37,388 bases of DNA, from the IMG/VR virus record IMGVR_UViG_2778261448_000003; one strand, 5' to 3'. Position numbers and translations under genes: made by a program. Source of the stretch: a virus (Duplodnaviria; Heunggongvirae; Uroviricota; Caudoviricetes). The first letter of the stretch is position 1. Every line of letters begins with the position of its first letter. The notes below the pieces were generated by a model, which saw only the letters and a list, made by a program, of their open reading frames with translations, did not search any database and had not been told where the DNA came from. Shown here piece after piece: positions 18,301 to 37,388 of the stretch.

Positions 18301-19637
18301 ATAAGCGCTGACTTAAGGGTTGTGGTATTACGCCTGATATGATTTAACGTGCCGATGAATTACTCTCACGATAACTGGTCAGCAATTCTGGCCCATATTG
18401 GTAAGCCCGAAGAACTGGATACTTCGGCACGTAATGCCGGGGCTCTAACCCGCCGCCGCGAAATTCGTGATGCTGCAACTCTGCTACGTCTGGGGCTGGC
18501 TTACGGCCCCGGGGGGATGTCATTACGTGAAGTCACTGCATGGGCTCAGATCCATGACGTTGCAACATTATCTGACGTGGCTCTCCTGAAGCGGCTGCGG
18601 AATGCCGCCGACTGGTTTGGCATACTTGCCGCACAAACACTTGCTGTACGCGCCGCAGTTACGGGTTGTACAAGCGGAAAGAGATTGCGTCTTGTCGATG
18701 GAACAGCAATCAGTGCGCCCGGGGGCGGCAGCGCTGAATGGCGACTACATATGGGATATGATCCTCATACCTGTCAGTTCACTGATTTTGAGCTAACCGA
18801 CAGCAGAGACGCTGAACGGCTGGACCGATTTGCGCAAACGGCAGACGAGATACGCATTGCTGACCGGGGATTCGGTTCGCGTCCCGAATGTATCCGCTCA
18901 CTTGCTTTTGGAGAAGCTGATTATATCGTCCGGGTTCACTGGCGAGGATTGCGCTGGTTAACTGCAGAAGGAATGCGCTTTGACATGATGGGTTTTCTGC
19001 GCGGGCTGGATTGCGGTAAGAACGGTGAAACCACTGTAATGATAGGCAATTCAGGTAATAAAAAAGCCGGAGCTCCCTTTCCGGCACGTCTCATTGCCGT
19101 ATCACTTCCTCCCGAAAAAGCATTAATCAGTAAAACCCGACTGCTCAGCGAGAATCGTCGAAAAGGACGAGTAGTTCAGGCGGAAACGCTGGAAGCAGCG
19201 GGCCATGTGCTATTGCTAACATCATTACCGGAAGATGAATATTCAGCAGAGCAAGTGGCTGATTGTTACCGTCTGCGATGGCAAATTGAACTGGCTTTTA
19301 AGCGGCTCAAAAGTTTGCTGCACCTGGATGCTTTGCGTGCAAAGGAACCTGAACTCGCGAAAGCGTGGATATTTGCTAATCTACTCGCCGCATTTTTAAT
19401 TGACGACATAATCCAGCCATCGCTGGATTTCCCCCCCAGAAGTGCCGGATCCGAAAAGAAGAACTAACTCGTTGTGGAGAATAACAAAAATGGTCATCTG
19501 GAGCTTACAGGTGGCCATTCGTGGGACAGTATCCCTGACAGCCTACAAAACGCAATTGAAGAACGCGAGGCATCGTCTTAACGAGGCACCGAGGCGTCGC
19601 ATTCTTCAGATGGTTCAACCCTTAAGTTAGCGCTTAT
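18301..19637 (+). mobile_element. IS186 (IS4 family) insertion sequence, complete, with ~23-bp terminal inverted repeats and a ~13-bp target-site duplication GGGACTCGAACCC
   Basis: Ends CATAAGCGCTGACTTAAGGGTTG ... CAACCCTTAAGTTAGCGCTTATG; identical flanking GGGACTCGAACCC at 18288-18300 and 19638-19650; internal transposase ORF. Confidence 0.9.
18349..19467 (+). CDS. insL: IS186 transposase (DDE, IS4 family)
   Basis: 372 aa ORF MPMNYSHDNWSAILAHIGKPEELDTSARNAGALTRRREIRD... recognised as the IS186 transposase. Confidence 0.9.
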   Translation: MPMNYSHDNWSAILAHIGKPEELDTSARNAGALTRRREIRDAATLLRLGLAYGPGGMSLREVTAWAQIHDVATLSDVALLKRLRNAADWFGILAAQTLAVRAAVTGCTSGKRLRLVDGTAISAPGGGSAEWRLHMGYDPHTCQFTDFELTDSRDAERLDRFAQTADEIRIADRGFGSRPECIRSLAFGEADYIVRVHWRGLRWLTAEGMRFDMMGFLRGLDCGKNGETTVMIGNSGNKKAGAPFPARLIAVSLPPEKALISKTRLLSENRRKGRVVQAETLEAAGHVLLLTSLPEDEYSAEQVADCYRLRWQIELAFKRLKSLLHLDALRAKEPELAKAWIFANLLAAFLIDDIIQPSLDFPPRSAGSEKKN

Positions 19638-20351: not shown

Positions 20352-20426
<75 letters not shown>

Positions 20427-20429
20427 ATA

Positions 20430-20505
<76 letters not shown>

Positions 20506-20507
20506 AC

Positions 20508-20584
20508 TGGACCGCCACCGAGGACTCGAACCTCGCACACTCAACTTAAAGGGTTAACACTCTTTCTTGGTGAACTGGTGGCGG
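20508..20584 (-). tRNA. Atypical tRNA-like gene X (isotype uncertain; possible UUU anticodon with C33)
   Basis: CCGCCAC...CGAGG-TTCGAGT-CCTCG-GTGGCGG-T-CCA: perfect acceptor and T-arm, but D-loop lacks GG and anticodon loop is CCTTTAA; paralogous to tRNA-like Y. Confidence 0.45.
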
Positions 20585-20585
20585 T

Positions 20586-20661
20586 TGGTGGCCCTTGCTG
20601 GATTCGAACCAGCGACCTGGCGATTATGAGTCGCTCGCTCTCACCACTGAGCTAAAGGGCC
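20586..20661 (-). tRNA. tRNA-Ile2-like (anticodon CAU, ileX/ileZ type)
   Basis: GGCCCTTTAGCTCAGTGGTGAGAGCGAGCGACTCATAATCGCCAGGTCGCTGGTTCGAATCCAGCAAGGGCCACCA; closer to E. coli ileX than to elongator Met. Confidence 0.75.
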
Positions 20662-24392: not shown

Positions 24393-24460
24393 AAGTGCGG
24401 GTGCGTTGAGGATGCCTGACACATCAGAGGTGGCGAGGGATTTCTCCCCCGCCTGGTCTC

Positions 24461-24616
24461 TTACTCCTCAGGTTCGTAAGCTGTGAAGACAGCGACCTCC
24501 GTCTGGCCGGTTCGGATTCGCACCTCGCAGAGGTCTTTCCTCGTTACCAGTGCCGTCACTATGACGGTTAAACAGATGACGATCAGGGCGATTAGCATCG
24601 CCTTTTGCTGCTTCAT
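24461..24616 (-). CDS. hok: Hok/Gef-family type I toxin (51 aa membrane peptide)
   Basis: Own translation: MKQQKAMLIALIVICLTVIVTALVTRKDLCEVRIRTGQTEVAVFTAYEPEE, matching HokD/RelF as recalled; absent from the ORF track because it is under 60 aa. Confidence 0.9.
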   Translation of the reverse strand: MKQQKAMLIALIVICLTVIVTALVTRKDLCEVRIRTGQTEVAVFTAYEPEE

Positions 24617-25249
24617 AGCCTGCTTCTCCTTGACCTTTCGGTCCGTAAGAGGCTAATCTCTATGTGTCGCATAGATATGGCCTCAGATTAATGTTAAGCG
24701 TCTTGCAGGACGCGTAATGTTAACTGGGGCTTTTCTCTATCTGCCGTTGGTGTTCATGCCCGAGGCAGATAGCCTCAAGCACCCACAGCCATTCTACTTA
24801 ACTACCGTTACCTCGCCAACATGAAATCAATCAGAAAGGCGAACCATAAGAACAATAACAACAATTAAATTCATTTTCTCAAATCCTGTTAACGACGCCC
24901 ATCCGACACTAACAACTTTCATTTATTATACTATTTCCCCATCGACGCTCTGCGTTGGCATAACACAAATCTGTCTGTCCGTTTGAGTAAAGAGCGGATA
25001 TCTGCAGTTTCAAAGAAACTGCGCATGCACACGAACTATCAAAGATAGTGATAACTGAGATAAAAACATATGGAAGCCTTCGGCATTTAAAAATAACAGC
25101 AAATCATATAAAAGGAAAGAGATAAGCAACATTTACATAACATGTATCACGATACGCCCCAGTGTTAATAAAAAGACTATCACTTTATTCTTTTATAATG
25201 TTAGTTTGCACTAGCAAGTGCCACTCCGAACAGAAAAAGGATACATGTA

Positions 25250-27061
25250 ATGAAGCTACAGCAATTTAATATTAAAAATTACAAGTCGATAAAAGATGAA
25301 ATAGAAGTATATATCGATGATATAGTTGTGCTAATTGGTCCAAATAACTCTGGAAAGTCAACAATATTAGATGCGTATGAAAAGTTTGCATCTTTAGGAT
25401 CAGCAAAAGGCCTGACTGCTCATGATTTTTATAACTCAGATATATCTATACCAATTGAAATGTGCGGAATTTTCACTGATATCACTGATGATGATATTCG
25501 TACATTAGGGGGAGAGAAATGGTTTTATAAAGATGATGCTCTTGACAGAAGAAATATGGCAAGAAAGTATGGGGGAGATTGGGAGAAAAATAATACACCA
25601 TTGGAAAGCAAACTCTATTATTGTGTTAAATGGGTTTGGTCACATCCAGAAAAAGCAGCCCAAAAACAATCCTATGGCCTTGATGATGCCTCTGGCAAAC
25701 GCATATTTATTGATGGGGGCTCTGGGGGACTTGACACACTACTACAAAGCCGAGTTCCTCAACCAATAAGAATAAGCCCAGATAAATCCATGGATGAAAC
25801 TAAAAAAATTATCATAAGTTTCTTAAAGGAAGATGCAAAAGATGAGTTACTGAAAACAGGGGAAAGTAAAGCTGATATAATACAGAAAATACAAGAGTTG
25901 ACAGACACTCTTATGAAAGATTCCAAATCAAAAATCGATGATCTTCTACAGCAGGTCTCCAAATCATCATCATCTGTTTTTCCTGGGCTAGAACTGGAAT
26001 TAAACATACTTTCCAAGGATCCCGTAGATGCGGATGTTATGGTTTCAGAATCTAACCTTACAGTGAAAATGGATGGGATAAATAGCTCTCTTCTCGAGAA
26101 CCAAGGTCACGGTGTTCGCCGCTCCGTTTTATGGTCTGCTTTGCAAATTTTGACTCACGAATCTCATGCACGAGATAAAATAAAAAAAGCGAAAGGTAAG
26201 CCTATCTCTGTTGAGAAAAAACAATATATTTTATTGATTGATGAGCCTGAATCATTTCTTCACCCTCCTATAATTAGAAGTGCGAGGGACTCGCTTTATG
26301 ATTTTGCAGCAAACAATGATAACTGGCAGGTGATGGCTACAACACACTCCCCTGTATTCATAGACTTATCCAAGAAGCACACGACTATAATTAGGATAGA
26401 AAAAGACAAATCTCTAAATAAAACAATATCTACAGATGAACTATCTTTTTCTGAAGAGGAAAAAGATAATATGAAAATGATAAGATTATGTAACCCAATG
26501 GTTAATGAGTTTTTCTTTTACGACAATATAATATTAGTTGAAGGACCAACTGAAAAAATCGTCATTAACAAAATATGTGATATTGTCGGAGTTGATTATC
26601 ATATCATTGACTGTTTAGGAAAAGGGAATATAAAAACATTTGCTAAAATATTAAATCAATTTAACGTTGAGTATATAGCAGTACATGACTCCGACATTCC
26701 AAAATGCTTAAAGCAAGGAAGCGTTTCAGGTAATGGAGCATGGGGTTCAAATGTATCCATAATGAACGAATGCTCTAAAAGTAAAAAACCAATGGTATTT
26801 ATTCAAATACCTCATTTCGAAGGACTGTTTTTTAAAAATTTCAATCCATCAAACAAAGTTGAAACAGTAACATCAGTTCTATCTAATAATTTAACACCAG
26901 AATACAAAGCAATATTTGATACATATAGCAGAATTTTAAACAAAGATCCTTCTGTTTTTATCAGCTCCAACGAAAAAATGATAGACATGTATCATGCATT
27001 TTATGCCAGTAATAAAAACCAAATTGAGACGCTAAAGAATCCTGAAATCTGGATCCTTTAA
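25250..27061 (+). CDS. OLD-family nuclease: N-terminal ABC-type ATPase fused to C-terminal Toprim domain (class-1, stand-alone)
   Basis: 603 aa; Walker A GPNNSGKST, Walker B/D-loop LLIDEPESFLHP, Toprim motifs LVEGPTE and HDSD; very AT-rich gene unlike the flanking prophage DNA. Confidence 0.8.
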   Translation: MKLQQFNIKNYKSIKDEIEVYIDDIVVLIGPNNSGKSTILDAYEKFASLGSAKGLTAHDFYNSDISIPIEMCGIFTDITDDDIRTLGGEKWFYKDDALDRRNMARKYGGDWEKNNTPLESKLYYCVKWVWSHPEKAAQKQSYGLDDASGKRIFIDGGSGGLDTLLQSRVPQPIRISPDKSMDETKKIIISFLKEDAKDELLKTGESKADIIQKIQELTDTLMKDSKSKIDDLLQQVSKSSSSVFPGLELELNILSKDPVDADVMVSESNLTVKMDGINSSLLENQGHGVRRSVLWSALQILTHESHARDKIKKAKGKPISVEKKQYILLIDEPESFLHPPIIRSARDSLYDFAANNDNWQVMATTHSPVFIDLSKKHTTIIRIEKDKSLNKTISTDELSFSEEEKDNMKMIRLCNPMVNEFFFYDNIILVEGPTEKIVINKICDIVGVDYHIIDCLGKGNIKTFAKILNQFNVEYIAVHDSDIPKCLKQGSVSGNGAWGSNVSIMNECSKSKKPMVFIQIPHFEGLFFKNFNPSNKVETVTSVLSNNLTPEYKAIFDTYSRILNKDPSVFISSNEKMIDMYHAFYASNKNQIETLKNPEIWIL

Positions 27062-27092
27062 TTTTTAATGTTGTAATAAATATTATTTAGTA

Positions 27093-27120
27093 ACAACCCT
27101 CTATTGAGGGTTGTTTTTAA
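27093..27120 (+). terminator. Intrinsic terminator after the OLD-family gene
   Basis: ACAACCCTC-TATTG-AGGGTTGT followed by TTTTT. Confidence 0.65.
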
Positions 27121-27233
27121 TCATAAGAAATCTGACACACTCTATCATACTAAAAATAACACAACATGCATACAAAGTGTTTATATGCATAGACATATTA
27201 CCTCACATCTGAGTCAATACACTTTAATTTCAT

Positions 27234-27656
27234 TTACCGAACCAATTTCTTATTACTGGTATGATAAAAGTTCAACACACGCCGCATAACATCGCTCTTC
27301 CGGCACTCGCGACAGATTATGTTTAGACGCCTGTCATAGCGACGTATTTCTCCGTCTGGTAATGACCAGATAAGGTCCGGATCAACCACAGATGGTTTCT
27401 TCAGCTTTGCCCTCGAGAGTTTTTTGCGGGCGTTTTGCCAGTCTTTACGTGCCTGCTCCGACGGGAATAACCCGTAGCCAGAGTTGTATACATAACCGCT
27501 CGCAACCAGCTCTCTGGCAAGAACGCTCATCAGATATCTTGTCGCACCTGTCTTGGCTTCCAGTTGACGTAACGTCTCGCGCCCACTCTGGCGTACAAGT
27601 TCAACAACCTGCCCTTTAATTTTTTCACGCTCTTCTTGTGTAAAAACTTTTGCCAC
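27234..27656 (-). CDS. Hypothetical HTH-containing protein downstream of the replication gene (140 aa, GTG start)
   Basis: ORF in the early-right operon after the O-like gene; probable HTH around TLRQLEAKTGATRYLMSVLAREL. Confidence 0.5.
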   Translation of the reverse strand: MAKVFTQEEREKIKGQVVELVRQSGRETLRQLEAKTGATRYLMSVLARELVASGYVYNSGYGLFPSEQARKDWQNARKKLSRAKLKKPSVVDPDLIWSLPDGEIRRYDRRLNIICRECRKSDVMRRVLNFYHTSNKKLVR

Positions 27657-27696
27657 AACTCCTCCTGATAATTACCTCATGAGCTGAAATAAACAC

Positions 27697-28773
27697 TTAC
27701 CCCCTGAAGCCCGGTGGAATTTCGGTATCCGGTTCAGAAATATGATTCACACAACGCTGGTTGTTCGTGCCGCTTACCTGGAGCAACCAGGGGTTTTCAA
27801 AATTCCGGTCCGGTCCAAAAAACGTCGTCGCCCGCTGAACAAATTCCGTTCCCGTTTTCCCGGTAACCGCTAGGTATCTTGCGTAACGCCTCACGCCATC
27901 CAGCATTGCCTCTGGTGGCACCCCCTCGCGTAATCTGGCCTTCCAGGCACTGAAAGCGGATTTCTTCGGGTTTGCCCCGGCACGCAACGGGTACTCCCGC
28001 CAGACCTGTTCGAACACATCCGGATAATCCACTCGTCCCACAGACTGCCCGGTGTTTTCCGGGACTACCCGATCGGCTTCCCGCTGAATGGCGGAATCGG
28101 CTTCAGGCTGCTGCAGTTGGTGTGATTGCTCCGGCCTTGCGGTCATCACCTGCTGCACAGCGCCCGAATCGGCTTTCAGCGCATACGCTGAATCGGCTTC
28201 CGGTGTCGTGCCTGCTGGCTGACCAAGATTGACGGTCTGAACATCCCCTGCCTGGTTCGTGGCGTTTTTTACGCCATGGACCATAGTGTTTTGATCTTCT
28301 TGATCTGTATCTTTATCTGTATCTTTATCTGTCGTGACTCGTCGTGACATGTGCGTGACATTTCGTGACGCGCCGTGACAATCGCCATTTTGTTCCCGCT
28401 TTCTTTCCCTCTCTCGCTGCGCCCTCTTGCGCTCTGCAGGAGATTTTGCGGTTTGCGAAATATTGCCGTTGTCCTCTTTAAGCACCTGGCGTTTTTCCCA
28501 TCCAGTGATTAAATCACCATCAAGTACCCGCCCCTGCATCGTCTGCAAAATTGAATCAATTACCTCTTCTGTCACGTCGAGCGCACTTGCCAAATCTTCT
28601 GTCGTGACATCAATGTGACCTCGCGTGACATTTCGTGACGCGCTCACCAGGAGGTGGATATACACTGCCATCACTGTTGCAATTGGCTGCCCTGACACCC
28701 TGGCAATTGTTCGCCACTTAGGGTCATTTGGCATGTCATGCCATAATCTGAGCCAGGCGTTAGCCATACTCAC
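27697..28773 (-). CDS. Replication initiation/replisome organiser protein (lambda O-like role), with internal iterons
   Basis: 358 aa; conserved phage replication-protein C-terminal region (VWREYPLRAG...FSAWKARLREGVPPEAMLDGVRRYARYLAVTGKTGTEFVQRATTFFGP); two iteron clusters inside the ORF. Confidence 0.7.
   Translation of the reverse strand: MSMANAWLRLWHDMPNDPKWRTIARVSGQPIATVMAVYIHLLVSASRNVTRGHIDVTTEDLASALDVTEEVIDSILQTMQGRVLDGDLITGWEKRQVLKEDNGNISQTAKSPAERKRAQRERERKREQNGDCHGASRNVTHMSRRVTTDKDTDKDTDQEDQNTMVHGVKNATNQAGDVQTVNLGQPAGTTPEADSAYALKADSGAVQQVMTARPEQSHQLQQPEADSAIQREADRVVPENTGQSVGRVDYPDVFEQVWREYPLRAGANPKKSAFSAWKARLREGVPPEAMLDGVRRYARYLAVTGKTGTEFVQRATTFFGPDRNFENPWLLQVSGTNNQRCVNHISEPDTEIPPGFRG
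28300..28640. repeat. Putative origin of replication: two clusters of CGTGAC iterons (28331-28380, five copies at ~10-bp spacing; 28600-28640, four copies) plus a tandem TGTATCTTTATC repeat
   Basis: Direct repeats visible in sequence, inside the O-like gene as lambda ori lies inside O. Confidence 0.65.
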
Positions 28774-28838: not shown

Positions 28839-29264
28839 TCAATGTACTGCCACAGCATTTCCTGCCGGGCCACCACGGTTCATCTGATTGAAACCGGCGA
28901 TTGCCACTGCGACAAAATCATCAGCGTCTCTCACCAATCGCTCCCGCGTCTCCACCAGCTCCCGAAAATAAGCTGAACTGTGGCTGCGCATTCTGGCCAC
29001 CAGCAAAGGCGGCATTGCCTTTTCGATCGCTGGTAACAACGCCTGAATTTTTTCAACTGCATCAGGGGTGTCTTTCTCTACCCAGCGGAAAATTTTCTGG
29101 GTATTGCGAGCCAGGGCTTCCGGATGGCTGTCGTCATACAGTTCAGGAAACGTCATACCCAACTCAAAATAAGCCTGGGTTATTCCAGCTGCCGGAACTT
29201 TTTCACCATCCGGATGCGCCCAGGCATTCATCGCCATGCGGATGTGCTCATGTTTGATTTTCAT
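28839..29264 (-). CDS. YdaT-like protein (Rac-type; cII-position gene)
   Basis: 141 aa starting MKIKHEHI, recalled as the Rac YdaT N-terminus; immediately downstream of the Cro-like gene. Confidence 0.55.
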   Translation of the reverse strand: MKIKHEHIRMAMNAWAHPDGEKVPAAGITQAYFELGMTFPELYDDSHPEALARNTQKIFRWVEKDTPDAVEKIQALLPAIEKAMPPLLVARMRSHSSAYFRELVETRERLVRDADDFVAVAIAGFNQMNRGGPAGNAVAVH

Positions 29265-29563
29265 GAATCAACTCCATCAGATAAGCATGCACTACAATCA
29301 CCTTCAGCATGAACTACATGTGTTTGCCCCAAACGAATGCCGCTCGCATACTCAGGCCAAATAAGCTCCCAATCATGGGGTCGTAGCTCCGCCCTACTTA
29401 CTTGGCCTTCCGTCGCAGATTCGATCATAAGGGCACGGGTTGGAGATATAGCTGCTCGTCCAGACGCCATTTGCGATAAGTAAGATGGCGATACACCAAG
29501 TCTGGCCGCGAATTTCTTAGCATCACCAACCCTCAATGATTTAATAAACTCTTTTAATGTCAT
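29261..29563 (-). CDS. Cro/YdaS-like HTH transcriptional regulator
   Basis: 100 aa; HTH segment FAARLGVSPSYLSQMASGR; first gene of the rightward early operon, divergent from the repressor gene. Confidence 0.7.
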   Translation of the reverse strand: MTLKEFIKSLRVGDAKKFAARLGVSPSYLSQMASGRAAISPTRALMIESATEGQVSRAELRPHDWELIWPEYASGIRLGQTHVVHAEGDCSACLSDGVDS

Positions 29564-31945: not shown

Positions 31946-32506
31946 TTCACCCTCCTGAGGGTTGGTGATTAAGGAGTTCTCCACGGGTGAGGTGGAGTGC
32001 GTGCGCCGGACACGGGTGAGCATACGGCACTGACAGTTTACTGAAAGGATATTTCCCTGAAAAGTCAGACCATAACGCGAAAGCGCACGGCGAGGTAGCT
32101 GGTTCATAGATAGCCTGTCGTTAAATTTTCGTCGACCGTGCGCTTCCGGTTGTGGCACTCCGCGAAATGGCGCGACGGTAAGTATGGCGGGGTTATTCCT
32201 TCCCCGTTGAGGACACCGGGTTGTCAGGTTGACCATACGCTTAAGTGACAACCCCGCTACAACGCCCTCTGTTATCAATTTTCTGGTGACGTTTGGCGGT
32301 ATCAGTTTTACTCCGTGGCTGCTCTGCCGCCCTTTTTAAAGTGAATTTTGTGATGCGGTGAATGCGGCTAAGCGCACGCGGAACAGTTAAAACCAAAAAC
32401 AGTGTTATGGGTGGATTCTCTGTATCCGACGTTAATTGTTAACTGGTTAACGTCACCTGGAGGCACCAGGCACCGCATCACAAAATTCATTGTTGAGGAC
32501 GCGATA

Positions 32507-32975: not shown

Positions 32976-35447
32976 ATGAGTAAAGTCTTTATTTGCGCCG
33001 CCATTCCGGACGAACAGGCAATAAAGGAAGAAGGTGCAGTCGCTGTAGCTACTGCCATTGAAGCCGGTGATGAACGTCGCGCCCGCGCAAAATTTCACTG
33101 GCAATTCCTGGAACATTATCCGGCTGCTCAGGACTGCGCTTATAAATTTCTTGTCTGCGAGGATAAACCCGGTATACCCCGCCCTGCCCTCGATTCCTGG
33201 GATGCTGAATATATGCAGGAAAACCGCTGGGATGAGGAGTCTGCTTCCTTTGTCCCGGTTGAGACTGAATCAGATCCGATGAACGTCACTTTTGACAAGC
33301 TGGCCCCTGAAGTACAGAACGCTGTCATGGTTAAGTTCGACACATGTGAAAACATCACTGTTGATATGGTGATTAGCGCACAGGAATTGTTGCAGGAAGA
33401 CATGGCAACATTCGACGGCCATATCGTTGAAGCGTTGATGAAAATGCCAGAAGTAAACGCCATGTATCCGGAGCTTAAGCTGCATGCCATCGGGTGGGTT
33501 AAGCATAAATGTAAGCCTGGTGCCAAATGGCCCGAAATTCAGGCAGAGATGTGCATCTGGAAAAAACGTCGCGAAGGTGAACGCAAGGAAACCGGAAAAT
33601 ACACGTCTGTTGTTGATCTCGCCCGCGCCAGACCCAATCAACAGAACACTGAAAATTCAACAGGAAAAATCAACCCGGTCATTGCTGCCACTCATCGCGA
33701 ATACAAGCAGACATGGAAAACACTGGATGACGAACTGGCCTACGCTCTCTGGCCTGGTGATGTGGATGCCGGAAACATTGACGGCAGCATCCATCGCTGG
33801 GCAAAAAATGAAGTTATCGACAACGACCGCGAAGACTGGAAGCGTATCTCGGCATCAATGCGCAAACAGCCTGATGCCCTTCGCTACGACCGCCAGACTA
33901 TTTTTGGCCTTGTCCGTGAACGTCCGATCGACATTCACAAAGACCCTGTGGCACTGAACAAATACATTACTGAATACCTGACTACAAAGGGCGTGTTTGA
34001 AGATGAAGGAAGAAATCAGAGCGCAACTGATACTCTCTCGTCGCCAGTACCAGAAACTGATGCAGTGGAAACGGCAATTCCGGACAACGAAAAAACCGAA
34101 TGCAAAGTGGAAGTCGAACCATCTGTAGAGCGTGAGGGGCCGTTCTACTTCCTCTTCACCGACAAGAATGGCGAAAAATACGGTCGCGCAAACAAACTTT
34201 CTGGTCTGGATAAGGCGCTGGCTGCCGGGGCTACTGAAATCACGAAAGAAGAATATTTCGCCCGCAAAAACGGTACATACTCAGGTTCACAACAAAATAC
34301 TGGTGCATCTGACACGACCGCACAACCAGAGCCGGTAAAAGTTACCGCTGACGAAGTAAACAAAATTATGCAGGCAGCCAATATCAGCCGGCCTGACGCC
34401 GATGAACTGCTTGCAGTATCACGTGGTGAATTTGTTGCAGGGATTAGCGATCCGAATGATCCGAAATGGGTGAAGGGGATTGAAACCCGCGATTCTGTGA
34501 ACCAGAACCAGCAAGAAACGGAACAGAACGACCAGAAAGCGGAACAAAACAGCCCAAATGCGTTACAAAATGAGCCAGAAACGAAACAATCCGAACCAGT
34601 AGCGCAACAGGAACCGGAAAAAGTCTGCACCGCCTGCGGTCAGAGCGGTGGCGGCAACTGCCCTGATTGTGGCGCGGTGATGGGCGACGCAACATACCAG
34701 GAAACATTCGATGAAGAGAATCAGGTTGAAGTTCAGGAAAATGATCCGGAGGAAATGGAAGGCGCTGAACATCCACACAAGGAGAACCCTGGCGGCAATC
34801 AGCATCACGCCAGCGATAATAAAACTGGCGAGGCGACAGATCCCTTAATTAAGGTGAATGGTCATTATAAGCTCACATCCACCAGCAGAGCGGGGATTCA
34901 TCTGATGATCGACCTTGAAACAATGGGAAAAAATCCCGATGCCCCGATTATCTCAATAGGCGCAATATTTTTCGATCCACAAACCGGAGAGATGGGGCCG
35001 GAATTTAGCAAGACCATCGATCTGGATACGGCTGGCGGAGTCATTGATCGTGACGTCATTAAATGGTGGCTGAAGCAATCACGTGAAGCGCAGTCTGCCA
35101 TTATGACCGATGAAATCCCGTTAGATGATGCACTACTGCAATTGCGGGAATTTATCGACGAAAACTCCGGTGAATTTTTTGTTCAGGTCTGGGGTAATGG
35201 GGCCAACTTCGACAACGTGATTTTACGCCGTTCATACGAACGACAGGGTATCCCCTGCCCGTGGCGCTACTGCAACGATCGCGATGTACGCACAATCGTT
35301 GAGCTGGGGAAAGCCATAGACTTCGATGCCAGAACTGCTATCCCATTCGAAGGTGAGCGCCATAATGCACTTGATGACGCTCGTTACCAGGCAAAATACG
35401 TTTCAGCTATCTGGCAAAAACTGATCCCGAGTCAGGCTGATTTTTAA
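32976..35447 (+). CDS. RecE (exodeoxyribonuclease VIII)-like early protein with C-terminal DEDD-type 3'-5' exonuclease domain
   Basis: 823 aa; central LLAVSRGEFVAGISDPNDPKWVKGIETRD segment recalled from Rac RecE; C-terminal DLETMG...NGANFD...HNALDDARY is a DnaQ-like DEDDh signature; Cys4 motif CTACG...CPDCG. Confidence 0.6.
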   Translation: MSKVFICAAIPDEQAIKEEGAVAVATAIEAGDERRARAKFHWQFLEHYPAAQDCAYKFLVCEDKPGIPRPALDSWDAEYMQENRWDEESASFVPVETESDPMNVTFDKLAPEVQNAVMVKFDTCENITVDMVISAQELLQEDMATFDGHIVEALMKMPEVNAMYPELKLHAIGWVKHKCKPGAKWPEIQAEMCIWKKRREGERKETGKYTSVVDLARARPNQQNTENSTGKINPVIAATHREYKQTWKTLDDELAYALWPGDVDAGNIDGSIHRWAKNEVIDNDREDWKRISASMRKQPDALRYDRQTIFGLVRERPIDIHKDPVALNKYITEYLTTKGVFEDEGRNQSATDTLSSPVPETDAVETAIPDNEKTECKVEVEPSVEREGPFYFLFTDKNGEKYGRANKLSGLDKALAAGATEITKEEYFARKNGTYSGSQQNTGASDTTAQPEPVKVTADEVNKIMQAANISRPDADELLAVSRGEFVAGISDPNDPKWVKGIETRDSVNQNQQETEQNDQKAEQNSPNALQNEPETKQSEPVAQQEPEKVCTACGQSGGGNCPDCGAVMGDATYQETFDEENQVEVQENDPEEMEGAEHPHKENPGGNQHHASDNKTGEATDPLIKVNGHYKLTSTSRAGIHLMIDLETMGKNPDAPIISIGAIFFDPQTGEMGPEFSKTIDLDTAGGVIDRDVIKWWLKQSREAQSAIMTDEIPLDDALLQLREFIDENSGEFFVQVWGNGANFDNVILRRSYERQGIPCPWRYCNDRDVRTIVELGKAIDFDARTAIPFEGERHNALDDARYQAKYVSAIWQKLIPSQADF

Positions 35448-36938: not shown

Positions 36939-37388
36939 GGTAATGACTCTAACTTATTGATAGTGTTTTATGTTCAGATAATGCCCGATGACTTTGTCAT
37001 GCAGCTCCACCGATTTTGAAAACGACAGCGACTTCCGTCCCAGCCGTGCCAGGTGCTGCCTCAGATTCAGGTTATGCCGCTCAATTCGCTGCGTATATCG
37101 CTTGCTGATTACGTGCAGCTTTCCCTTCAGGCGGGATTCATACAGCGGCCAGCCATCCGTCATCCATATCACCACGTCAAAGGGTGACAGCAGGCTCATA
37201 AGACGCCCCAGCGTCGCCATCGTGCGTTCACCGAATACGTGCGCAACAACCGTCTTCCGGAGACTGTCATACGCGTAAAACAGCCAGCGCTGGCGCGATT
37301 TAGCCCCGACATAGCCCCACTGTTCGTCCATTTCCGCGCAGACGATGACGTCACTGCCCGGCTGTATGCGCGAGGTTACCGACTGCGG
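36939..37388 (-). mobile_element. IS1 (partial; right end at ~36939, continues beyond the window)
   Basis: Terminal sequence GGTAATGACTC(T)AACTTATTGATAGTGTTTTATGTTCAGATAATGCCCG matches the IS1 end as recalled; contains an insB-type ORF. Confidence 0.85.
36954..37331 (-). CDS. insB: IS1 transposase InsB segment
   Basis: 125 aa [48 protein letters not shown]... recognised as IS1 InsB. Confidence 0.85.

Follow-up and report, generated by a model that had tools for sequence, protein, structure and literature searches.

A solitary OLD-family ATPase-Toprim nuclease gene carried as exchangeable cargo by an E. coli lambdoid prophage: a Class 1 cassette with a likely anti-phage role

Introduction

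Class 1 OLD nucleases are defined by their genomic context, as single genes without an adjacent partner (PMC10568477), and are rare, occurring in 0.45% of genomes (PMC12392090). Single-gene OLD defence has precedents in P2 Old (PMC12445682), Vibrio cholerae Vc OLD (PMC12392090) and E. coli YbjD/OldB (PMC13261556). [quoted passage not shown] Vc OLD, a RecBCD-independent DNA nickase, confers an abortive-infection-type defence that needs both its ATPase and its nuclease residues and is weak at native expression (PMC12392090). Induction of YbjD gives weak anti-phage phenotypes, and deletion of ybjD gives none (PMC13261556). The Thermus scotoductus enzyme TsOLD is a non-specific DNA exo/endonuclease without a known phage target (PMC10568477, PMC7049728). 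Because the three tested Class 1 OLDs differ in trigger or substrate, each new member that is well delimited and natively packaged offers a useful test of how a lone ATPase-Toprim protein detects infection and which target it cuts.

Here we describe a 603-aa OLD-family protein encoded in the window, the whole 37,388-nucleotide stretch of DNA that was analysed. The locus is likely a Class 1 OLD nuclease carried as an autonomous "moron" cassette in a cargo-exchange slot, its most likely role being to exclude other phages from the lysogen by abortive infection. These findings do not overturn current understanding.

Results

An intact OLD-family nuclease gene

The gene starts with ATG and encodes 603 aa followed by a stop codon. 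Its parts are:

25250..27061, plus strand: OLD-family ATPase-Toprim nuclease gene (evidence from the ORF, HMMs, fold and dN/dS)
25250..26362, plus strand: ABC-type ATPase domain, aa 1-371 (Pfam AAA_15 spans aa 1-371)
26513..26821, plus strand: Toprim nuclease domain, aa 422-524 (Pfam OLD-like_TOPRIM at aa 422-482)
26822..27058, plus strand: C-terminal helical region, aa 525-603 (invariant K536, Y559 and W601)

The initial annotation had read this ORF as an ATPase-Toprim protein with the motifs GPNNSGKST, LLIDEPESFLHP, LVEGPTE and HDSD, and the sequence bears this out, all four being present. HMM searches likewise detected both proposed domains (AAA_15, 8.5e-30; OLD-like_TOPRIM, PF20469, 2.3e-14), and among PADLOC models Old scored best (3.4e-73). 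The proposed fold also held on structure comparison, which gave full-length matches to the solved OLD proteins 6p74, 8u7i/8sm3 and 9lp9.

The ATPase carries a Walker A motif at G30-T38 (K36), a signature-like Q285-G-H-G-x-x-R291, a Walker B at D331-E332, the D-loop H338 and the H-loop H366, and these residues are invariant among 42 homologues. Alignment assigned E431, D480 and D482 as Toprim ligands of metal A and E435, H522 and E524 as those of metal B; all are invariant in the 42 homologues, H522 excepted. The model places a long helical insertion within the ATPase at aa about 181-312, with helices at 181-202, 210-241 and 287-312 of low pLDDT; it is probably the dimerization domain. In the C-terminal region, helices are predicted at 536-544, 550-563 and 574-587, with pLDDT 81-95 over aa 541-600. 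The ABC-type ATPase motif set, the OLD-type Toprim ligands and the helical insertion within a full-length OLD fold together place the protein in the OLD family. In OLD nucleases a basic catalytic residue lies close to the scissile phosphate (R487 in TsOLD, K550 in P2, K562 in BpOLD). TsOLD R487 aligns with the non-conserved F531 and TsOLD K492 with the invariant K536, and K536 is no more than a candidate equivalent of TsOLD R487 or P2 K550.

The exact protein is recorded on just one 2.7-kb contig. Against the copies in Yersinia and Serratia dN/dS was 0.07, demonstrating strong purifying selection on the ORF, which therefore did not arise by chance. Judged from its sequence, the protein appears to belong to an established type of single-gene anti-phage proteins, in an experimentally uncharacterised branch.

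Relationship to P2 Old and other Class 1 proteins

The nearest solved structure is that of TsOLD (PDB 6P74, Class 1; profile E 7.3e-27, Foldseek 5.7e-21), whose metal-B pair S478/E480 matches H522/E524 here, although identity is about 15-18%. Vc OLD (Class 1), compared by description, is likewise encoded alone on a mobile element, in its case a phage defence element. YbjD (Class 1), the product of a chromosomal core gene of E. coli, is a further OLD-family protein encoded without a partner, but identity to it is 26% and limited to 178 aa, and YbjD lacks the H-loop histidine (N323).

P2 Old (NP_046798, Class 1, phage P2) is likewise a single-gene, prophage-borne lysogenic-conversion gene that combines an ABC ATPase with Toprim. 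K36, D331, H338 and H366 align with P2 Old K37, D299, H306 and H332, and E431, E435, D480 and D482 with P2 Old E398, E402, D453 and D455; these eight P2 Old residues are essential in vivo, and their mutation abolishes killing (PMC7049728). Every essential P2 Old residue N-terminal of aa 483 is thereby conserved, and hhalign gave 99.5% probability across aa 1-483. These matches, with the best-scoring PADLOC Old model, would fit a strict functional orthologue of P2 Old, in which RecBCD inhibition (by lambda Gam) is the trigger and the anticodon arm of tRNA-Thr(UGU) is cut off. We consider this unlikely. Identity to P2 Old is 24%, and both the hhalign and BLASTP alignments stop at aa 483 of 603, so that the C-terminal 120 aa, the region in which P2 Old has D541, E543 and K550, are unaligned; transfer of mechanism from P2 Old is therefore weak. 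MAFFT placed the equivalents of these three residues ambiguously, whereas the TsOLD profile alignment gave H522/E524. With tblastn against 50,697 phage records the P2 match was only 30% over aa 286-482, and a close full-length relationship was not found. Among the three characterised Class 1 OLDs, too, trigger or substrate varies, and the host element is itself lambdoid, so a Gam-type trigger would endanger it. The carrier differs too, being a lambdoid rather than a P2-like prophage, with no tin partner downstream. On these alignments the protein is best described as a distant, paralogue-level relative of P2 Old; of the "P2 Old and GajA-type" architecture first proposed, the ATPase-Toprim make-up stands, while P2 Old proves only distant and the protein is not a Gabija component.

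P2 Old is countered by phage tRNA-Thr, which prompted a check of the tRNA-Thr(UGU) gene of this prophage. No support emerged for a link to the OLD gene: the tRNA is identical to host thrU at 75 of 76 positions with the anticodon stem CUG/CAG unchanged, and UMNK88, where the prophage does not carry the OLD gene, has this tRNA cluster annotated as well.

An AT-rich cassette with sharp borders in a common prophage slot

The host element is a Qin/DicB-type lambdoid prophage of E. coli. The cassette and its surroundings are:

24461..24616, minus strand: left flank, hokD toxin ORF (hokD annotation in homologous records), outside the cassette
24614-24784, minus strand: left flank, sok/hok regulatory RNA (Rfam sok, 101 bits), outside the cassette
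24872..27261, no strand assigned: cargo cassette, 2390 bp, 33.9% GC, in the slot between hok/sok and the DUF977 gene
27234..27656, minus strand: right flank, DUF977 gene (Pfam DUF977, 3.8e-24)
27697..28773, minus strand: replisome-organizer-like gene
28839..29264, minus strand: ydaT-like gene
29261..29563, minus strand: cro-like gene

Borders were set by comparison with prophages carrying other cargo, those of REL606 and UMNK88; homology to both ends at 24871 and restarts at 27262. The final 8-9 codons of DUF977 (27237-27261) fall inside the cassette, and the C-terminal tails of this protein vary with cargo type. GC content is 34.1% in the OLD gene and 33.9% in the cassette against 50.4% in the rest of the window; windowed values are 0.30-0.38 over 25001-27500 and about 0.52 on either side. 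The AT-rich island of the initial annotation is thus real in its low GC, although its upstream segment measures about 380 bp and not 450 bp, since the exact borders lie at 24872 and 27261. The flanking genes are all on the minus strand, so the plus-strand OLD gene does oppose the early-right operon, as had been noted, and because it is convergent with that operon PR cannot transcribe it.

Both flanks of the slot were found in 4,836 of 5,426 complete E. coli genomes (about 89%), the cassette in four. Cassette DNA upstream (360 bp) and downstream (200 bp) of the gene is confined, among these E. coli genomes, to the four that carry it. A PADLOC scan of ten neighbouring proteins, short of the late genes, gave no defence match, consistent with the earlier view that this gene is the likeliest defence system of the window.

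Expression signals

The OLD gene has the following candidate control elements:

24872..25249, plus strand: non-coding AT-rich leader, 36.8% GC, without a credible ORF
25194..25199, plus strand: candidate -10 element, a perfect TATAAT 50 nt 5' of the ATG, without a good -35
25237..25241, plus strand: Shine-Dalgarno AAGGA, 8 nt before the ATG, within the segment 25232-27060 conserved with the Yersinia and Serratia copies
27087..27120, plus strand: intrinsic-terminator-like hairpin, an inverted repeat of AACAACCCTC-TATT-GAGGGTTGTT then TTTTTAA

The leader presumably holds the gene's own promoter. It contains an 8-bp perfect inverted repeat at 25004-25022 and is not common to the Yersinia or Serratia copies, DNA homology to which begins at 25232. 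A promoter scan missed the TATAAT at 25194-25199; its total of 12 sites, with 10.3 expected, was not above chance or shuffled sequence. The hairpin has a 10-bp G+C-rich stem followed by UUUUU, 30 nt past the stop codon, and a stability of -20.4 kcal/mol (z = -4.75) that none of 200 shuffles equalled. It serves the plus strand only, the reverse strand having no T-run after the stem, and it bears out the claim that the gene ends in its own terminator.

AT-rich cassette DNA may be silenced (H-NS), and the cassette could be silent or decaying cargo without a present function: it occurs in four of 5,426 genomes, is AT-rich, has at most a candidate promoter, and lies in a degraded host prophage in strain VG48B2. 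This reading is improbable given an intact 603-codon ORF in 34% GC DNA with a dN/dS of 0.07 across genera, retention of all catalytic residues, and a good ribosome-binding site and terminator.

The ORF travels alone

With the Yersinia and Serratia copies the locus shares only 25232-27060, that is, the ribosome-binding site and the ORF. An 88% identical copy adjoins the integrase of a P2/186-like prophage, an 87% identical copy occupies the psu-int slot of a P4-like satellite in Serratia, and the same ORF is also found at plain chromosomal sites. The psu-int slot is a published defence hotspot (PMC9122126). WP_016248732 was sought in the supplementary tables of Rousset et al. and was absent from them. 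The presence of near-identical copies at defence hotspots already published for other mobile elements provides good circumstantial evidence that the protein is active.

This distribution bears on a possible function in the life cycle of the prophage itself, for example in replication, recombination or DNA processing, in place of defence. Toprim domains are also found in primases and topoisomerases, the gene lies directly downstream of replication genes, and the archaeal OLD Cran1 has a non-defence role, reportedly in the cell cycle. We nonetheless judge such a role very improbable. The same flanks exist without the OLD gene in about 4,800 genomes, and the slot carries unrelated cargo; the gene is transcribed against the early operon, its Toprim domain is OLD-type and not primase-type by Pfam, and the same ORF resides in satellites, a P2/186-like prophage and plain chromosomal sites.

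No recurrent neighbour or partner gene was found in 11 contexts, the window locus and ten others. The claim that the gene stands alone therefore extends beyond this locus: neither a helicase nor a reverse transcriptase, an ncRNA or a separate Toprim partner is adjacent to it here or in the ten other family contexts. One 48%-identical E. coli homologue has a NERD-UvrD gene two genes upstream, with T6SS genes between, an arrangement that does not recur. The cassette holds one credible ORF and its flanks exist without the nuclease; with no recurring partner in any context, the gene is Class 1 by definition. Other ORFs in 24872-27261 were rejected as partners, being 40-85 aa long, overlapping the OLD frame or the terminator, and not conserved elsewhere; hok/sok and DUF977 were rejected as functional partners because thousands of genomes have them and lack the nuclease.

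[quoted passage not shown] The PADLOC GajA, AriA, AriAB and retron ATPase-Toprim models did give secondary matches (1e-17 to 1e-31; AriAB 6e-20), the NCBIfam Eco8 effector model reached a sub-threshold 37.8 bits against a cutoff of 250, and hok/sok is adjacent. However, the Old model is far ahead of the others, the GajA models being at least 47 orders of magnitude worse, and only the ORF travels between contexts. Unlike GajA, the gene has no adjacent GajB/UvrD helicase here or in the family contexts examined, and within the cassette there is neither a UvrD-like helicase nor a reverse transcriptase, and neither msr/msd RNA nor a DUF4435 protein. Pfam gave no DUF4435 match, as PARIS would require; no RT ORF or retron RNA family, as in the Eco8-like retron type I-B (Class 3), was found in the window at the gathering threshold, and Rfam detected no RNA family, retron or other, within the cassette.

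Discussion

The locus behaves as a cassette: it has sharp borders, is rare, sits where other genomes carry alternative cargos, and its ORF recurs on other mobile elements at sites known as defence hotspots. We infer a defence role from family membership together with this hotspot context. By analogy with characterised relatives, the protein would dimerise via the helical insertion in its ATPase, ATP binding and hydrolysis would license the two-metal Toprim site, and a phage-derived cue would cause that site to cut double-stranded nucleic acid. The target could be tRNA anticodon stems, as for P2 Old, or phage or host DNA, nicked as by Vc OLD; we give the two substrates about equal weight. Translation or replication would then stop and no progeny would be made. 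At native levels the defence may be small, because Vc OLD is weak natively and ybjD deletion has no phenotype. Speculatively, antisense read-through from PR at induction may lower OLD expression and so spare the resident phage. At 2.4 kb, with defined borders and native control regions, the compact cassette can be cloned as a unit.

A broader reading combines two proposals and is possible, though we hold it tentatively. In it, the 603-aa enterobacterial clade would add a fourth functional type to the Class 1 OLDs, with a trigger and a nucleic-acid target unlike those of P2 Old, Vc OLD and YbjD, specified by a clade-specific ATPase insertion (aa about 96-121) and the distinct C-terminal helices. 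The clade appears to move as a bare ORF among the lambdoid-prophage slot, P2/186-like prophages, P4-like satellites and chromosomal sites. The hok/sok-DUF977 slot would, in the same combined reading, be a lambdoid-prophage hotspot for defence cargo that most E. coli possess and that has so far gone undescribed; a literature search found no description of a lambdoid hok/DUF977 hotspot. The slot resembles the psu-int (P4-like) and cos-proximal (P2-like) hotspots described by Rousset et al. 2022 (PMC9122126), each a fixed slot with interchangeable, often counter-oriented cargo that includes defence genes, but differs from them in its setting: a lambdoid prophage, downstream of the replication genes, with hok/sok on one side and DUF977 on the other. 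It holds numerous alternative cargos and, as the P2 and P4 hotspots were, could be mined for further accessory and defence genes. Much of the cargo that fills it in other genomes carries no defence annotation; the unrelated cargos found there include the PADLOC candidate PDC-S33 RelA/SpoT protein.

A solitary gene in an AT-rich cassette

The OLD gene is an open reading frame of 603 codons (25250..27061, + strand) that starts with ATG and has a ribosome-binding site, AAGGA, readable in the sequence 8 nt 5' of it. The gene is 34.1% GC compared with 50.4% in the remainder of the window, and windowed GC was 0.30-0.38 over 25001-27500 with values of about 0.52 to the left and right. A hairpin at 27087-27120, 30 nt 3' of the stop codon, combines a 10-bp stem with a following UUUUU, and the T-run is present in the + direction only; folding gave an energy of -20.4 kcal/mol (z = -4.75), and 0 of 200 shuffles were equally stable. 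Every neighbouring gene lies on the - strand. The initial annotation had described a stand-alone ORF in an AT-rich island, oriented against the flanking operon and ending in its own terminator, and each of these points held up.

Features of the window around the OLD gene
18349-19467, + strand: insertion-sequence transposase gene, DDE_Tnp_1 family (1.3e-26)
20352-20661, - strand: three tRNA genes, Gly(UCC), Thr(UGU) and a CAU-anticodon tRNA
24461..24616, - strand: hokD
24614-24784, - strand: sok RNA (Rfam, 101 bits)
27234..27656, - strand: DUF977 gene
27697..28773, - strand: replisome-organizer-like gene
beyond the replisome-organizer-like gene, - strand: ydaT-like gene and cro-like gene
32281-32332, + strand: DicF antisense sRNA (Rfam, 75 bits)
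36954-37331, - strand: IS1 transposase gene near the window end (3.9e-73)

The prophage is recognisable as Qin/DicB-type from the DicF sRNA in the window and from the dicB-ydfD module, with dicB/ydfD homologues in locus L001; its equivalent in strain VG48B2 is degraded and integrated between potB and potC. The orientation of the OLD gene opposite to the prophage early operon excludes expression from the early promoter, and its 3' end carries autonomous transcription signals. A perfect candidate -10 hexamer, TATAAT, lies at 25194-25199 (+) without a good -35 hexamer, and a promoter consensus scan found no excess of sites (12 compared with 10.3 in shuffled sequence). The leader also contains, at 25004-25022 (+), about 230 nt 5' of the start codon, a perfect inverted repeat, 8 bp per arm with 3 nt between the arms, GCAGTTTC AAA GAAACTGC, which lacks a T-run and may act as an operator or fold into an RNA hairpin.

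Domains and catalytic residues

Pfam matched AAA_15 to aa 1-371 of the 603-aa protein (8.5e-30), along with AAA_21, and OLD-like_TOPRIM to aa 422-482 (2.3e-14). The top PADLOC model was Old (3.4e-73, aa 1-507), with AriA (2.4e-31) and many GajA models (1e-17 to 6e-26) far below it. PHROGs gave a full-length match to phrog_4747, of unknown function (1.8e-145), and 0 NCBIfam models scored above their own cutoff. By sequence the closest solved structure is 6P74, the Thermus scotoductus Class 1 OLD (TsOLD), at 3e-16 with the single sequence and 7.3e-27 with the family profile. For an AlphaFold2 model built from 42 homologues (mean pLDDT 78.5, pTM 0.74), Foldseek also ranked 6P74 first (5.7e-21), with GajA and the retron-Eco8 OLD next. 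The predicted ATPase-Toprim architecture was recovered by Pfam, PADLOC and Foldseek alike. Membership in Gabija, PARIS or a retron, systems whose OLD-type components appear among these matches, fails because the defining partner is absent.

In the alignment, ATPase residues K36, D331, H338 and H366 correspond to P2 Old K37, D299, H306 and H332, and Toprim residues E431, E435, D480 and D482 to P2 Old E398, E402, D453 and D455; each of these P2 Old residues is needed for in vivo host killing (PMC7049728). H522/E524 match the TsOLD metal-B pair S478/E480, and all of the residues listed for the 603-aa protein except H522 are invariant among the 42 homologues. In TsOLD the catalytic basic residue is R487; the position aligned with it is not conserved, and invariant K536 is a candidate equivalent. 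As far as the alignment can tell, the catalytic inventory is complete, the basic residue apart.

A 23-residue insertion in the ATPase domain (aa 96-121, nt about 25535-25612; DALDRRNMARKYGGDWEKNNTPLESKLYY region) is modelled confidently, partly as helix. The enterobacterial 603-aa clade has it, along with smaller insertions elsewhere, and the broader 562-aa clade lacks it; the 23 residues may serve in specificity or sensing.

Kinship and family spread

P2 Old shares 24% identity with the 603-aa protein over 527 aligned positions (BLASTP), and profile comparison (99.5% probability) covered aa 1-483 only; the last 120 residues, helical and well predicted, have no counterpart in P2 Old. Judged on these comparisons, the 603-aa protein is not close kin of P2 Old. 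YbjD/OldB is farther off (26% identity over 178 aa), and its H-loop histidine is missing. The comparisons with P2 Old and YbjD/OldB place the clade far from both, and it is probably remote from the third characterised Class 1 protein, Vc OLD, as well.

Two groups make up the family: a tight 603-aa clade (80-100% identity) found in E. coli, Yersinia and Serratia, and a broad one of about 562 aa, at 41-49% identity, that spans Proteobacteria, Bacteroidota and Leptospira. When 1.84 billion representative proteins were searched exhaustively, 154 clusters passed E <= 1e-30 and 1,285 passed E <= 1e-10; relatives of any kind were found in just 8 of 50,697 phage records. In Rhizobium phage RHph_Y3_56_1 (record L009, 4001-5699), and likewise in RHph_Y3_1, the annotation divides a homologue of 41.6% identity into two neighbouring ORFs, a 409-aa ATPase and a 155-aa Toprim protein, 1 nt apart and just upstream of the integrase. 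The pair reflects either a frameshift or a Class 1-type OLD that is truly split in the manner of PARIS.

The cassette occupies a cargo hotspot

When 24400-27700 was compared by megablast with 5,426 complete E. coli genomes, the flanks of the slot (24461-24871, 27262-27656) turned up in 4,836 of them and the full segment in only 4, at 98.2-98.5% identity and annotated 'ATP-dependent nuclease'. Alignment to the REL606 and UMNK88 prophages, which hold other cargo, placed the borders identically at 24871/24872 and 27261/27262, the right one within the 3'-terminal 8-9 codons of DUF977 (27237-27261, - strand), which belong to the variable segment and give the protein a C-terminal tail that varies with cargo type (…FYHTSNKKLVR, …FYQGNYREVML, …FYQGDVRYLLK, …FYQG). 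In E. coli the 360 bp 5' and 200 bp 3' of the ORF never occur without it. Given these exact borders and the linkage of the 5' and 3' stretches to the ORF, the 2,390-bp segment (24872..27261) acts as a single unit.

Cargos of the slot between hok/sok and DUF977 (at least nine; loci include L002, REL606; L003, UMNK88; and L030-L033)
OLD (window)
QueH, with or without a methyltransferase fragment
RelA/SpoT-domain protein: PADLOC defence candidate PDC-S33, 7e-119
NUDIX and HAD hydrolase pair: weak PDC-S07 match of the NUDIX protein
alpha/beta hydrolase
KilA-N protein
SAM methyltransferases
run of small ORFs including DUF7167
269-aa hypothetical protein

In Qin/DicB-type lambdoid prophages the hok/sok-DUF977 interval is a hotspot of cargo diversity. 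Since the RelA/SpoT and NUDIX proteins match defence candidates and the remaining four cargo proteins tested with PADLOC have no defence annotation, the slot is a mixed accessory and defence hotspot. Our literature search found no paper on it.

The ORF moves alone and is under purifying selection

A Yersinia ruckeri copy (88% identical) directly follows the integrase of a P2/186-like prophage. A Serratia marcescens copy (87%) lies in a P4-like satellite adjoining smpB, with the Ogr/Delta-psu region on one side and the integrase on the other; this site is the psu-int hotspot, which Rousset et al. showed to carry anti-phage systems (PMC9122126). Further copies (86-87%) are solitary chromosomal insertions beside pepT or near Rhs toxin genes. 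Genes of the 562-aa clade likewise stand alone, and lie on or next to integrative elements in Pseudomonas, Flavobacteriales, Salmonella and E. coli. The DNA similarity that links the window to the Yersinia and Serratia copies is restricted to 25232-27060, the ribosome-binding site and ORF, and no promoter, RNA or second gene co-moves. The gene keeps 34-37% GC even in a 56% GC Serratia background.

OLD Class 1 is assigned by genomic context (PMC10568477), and by that definition the gene is a Class 1 OLD, solitary in the window and elsewhere, as initially proposed; we hold the family and class assignment with high confidence. The cargo behaviour of the gene makes a function in replication of the prophage itself unlikely, and the purifying selection measured against the Yersinia and Serratia copies (dN/dS = 0.07 at dS ~1) contradicts the idea of silent decay.

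Proposed function

The gene is intact and selected, its product is a solitary ATPase-Toprim protein with a full metal-ligand set, and the cassette is mobile through defence hotspots; an anti-phage role is likely. The gene would be expressed in the lysogen and the protein would dimerise via a helical insertion; a phage cue would elicit ATP-controlled two-metal cleavage of double-stranded nucleic acid, with an abortive outcome. Characterised proteins act in different ways: on RecBCD inhibition P2 Old cuts both anticodon-stem strands of tRNA-Thr(UGU) (PMC12445682), Vc OLD nicks DNA and blocks ICP1 replication independently of RecBCD (PMC12392090), and the Toprim domain is dispensable for YbjD action (PMC13261556). 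Any particular substrate for the 603-aa protein is a tentative choice at best, and a strict P2-Old-like function is possible but unsupported.

RefSeq names the product ATP-dependent nuclease, and PADLOC-type annotation would probably label the gene Old already. Added here are the exact cassette borders and hotspot context in a lambdoid prophage, the movement of the ORF alone among P2-like, P4-like and lambdoid elements, and the clade's apparent distance from the three characterised Class 1 proteins; the cassette is a convenient experimental object, not a surprise.

Other features of the prophage

The prophage Thr(UGU) tRNA was considered as a cleavage-resistant decoy and ruled out, because it matches host thrU at 75 of 76 positions and keeps the CUG/CAG anticodon stem at which P2 Old cuts. 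The UMNK88 prophage lacks the OLD gene and also carries an annotated Gly/Thr/Ile tRNA cluster at the corresponding position. ARAGORN calls the CAU-anticodon tRNA of the window Met, while the UMNK88 cluster is annotated with a tRNA-Ile. In the early-left operon, the 823-aa 'exonuclease' (32976-35447, + strand), whose N-terminal 640 aa gave no Pfam match, carries a C-terminal Rv2179c-like 3'-5' exoribonuclease (DEDDh) domain (2.6e-66) in place of the classical RecE annotation.
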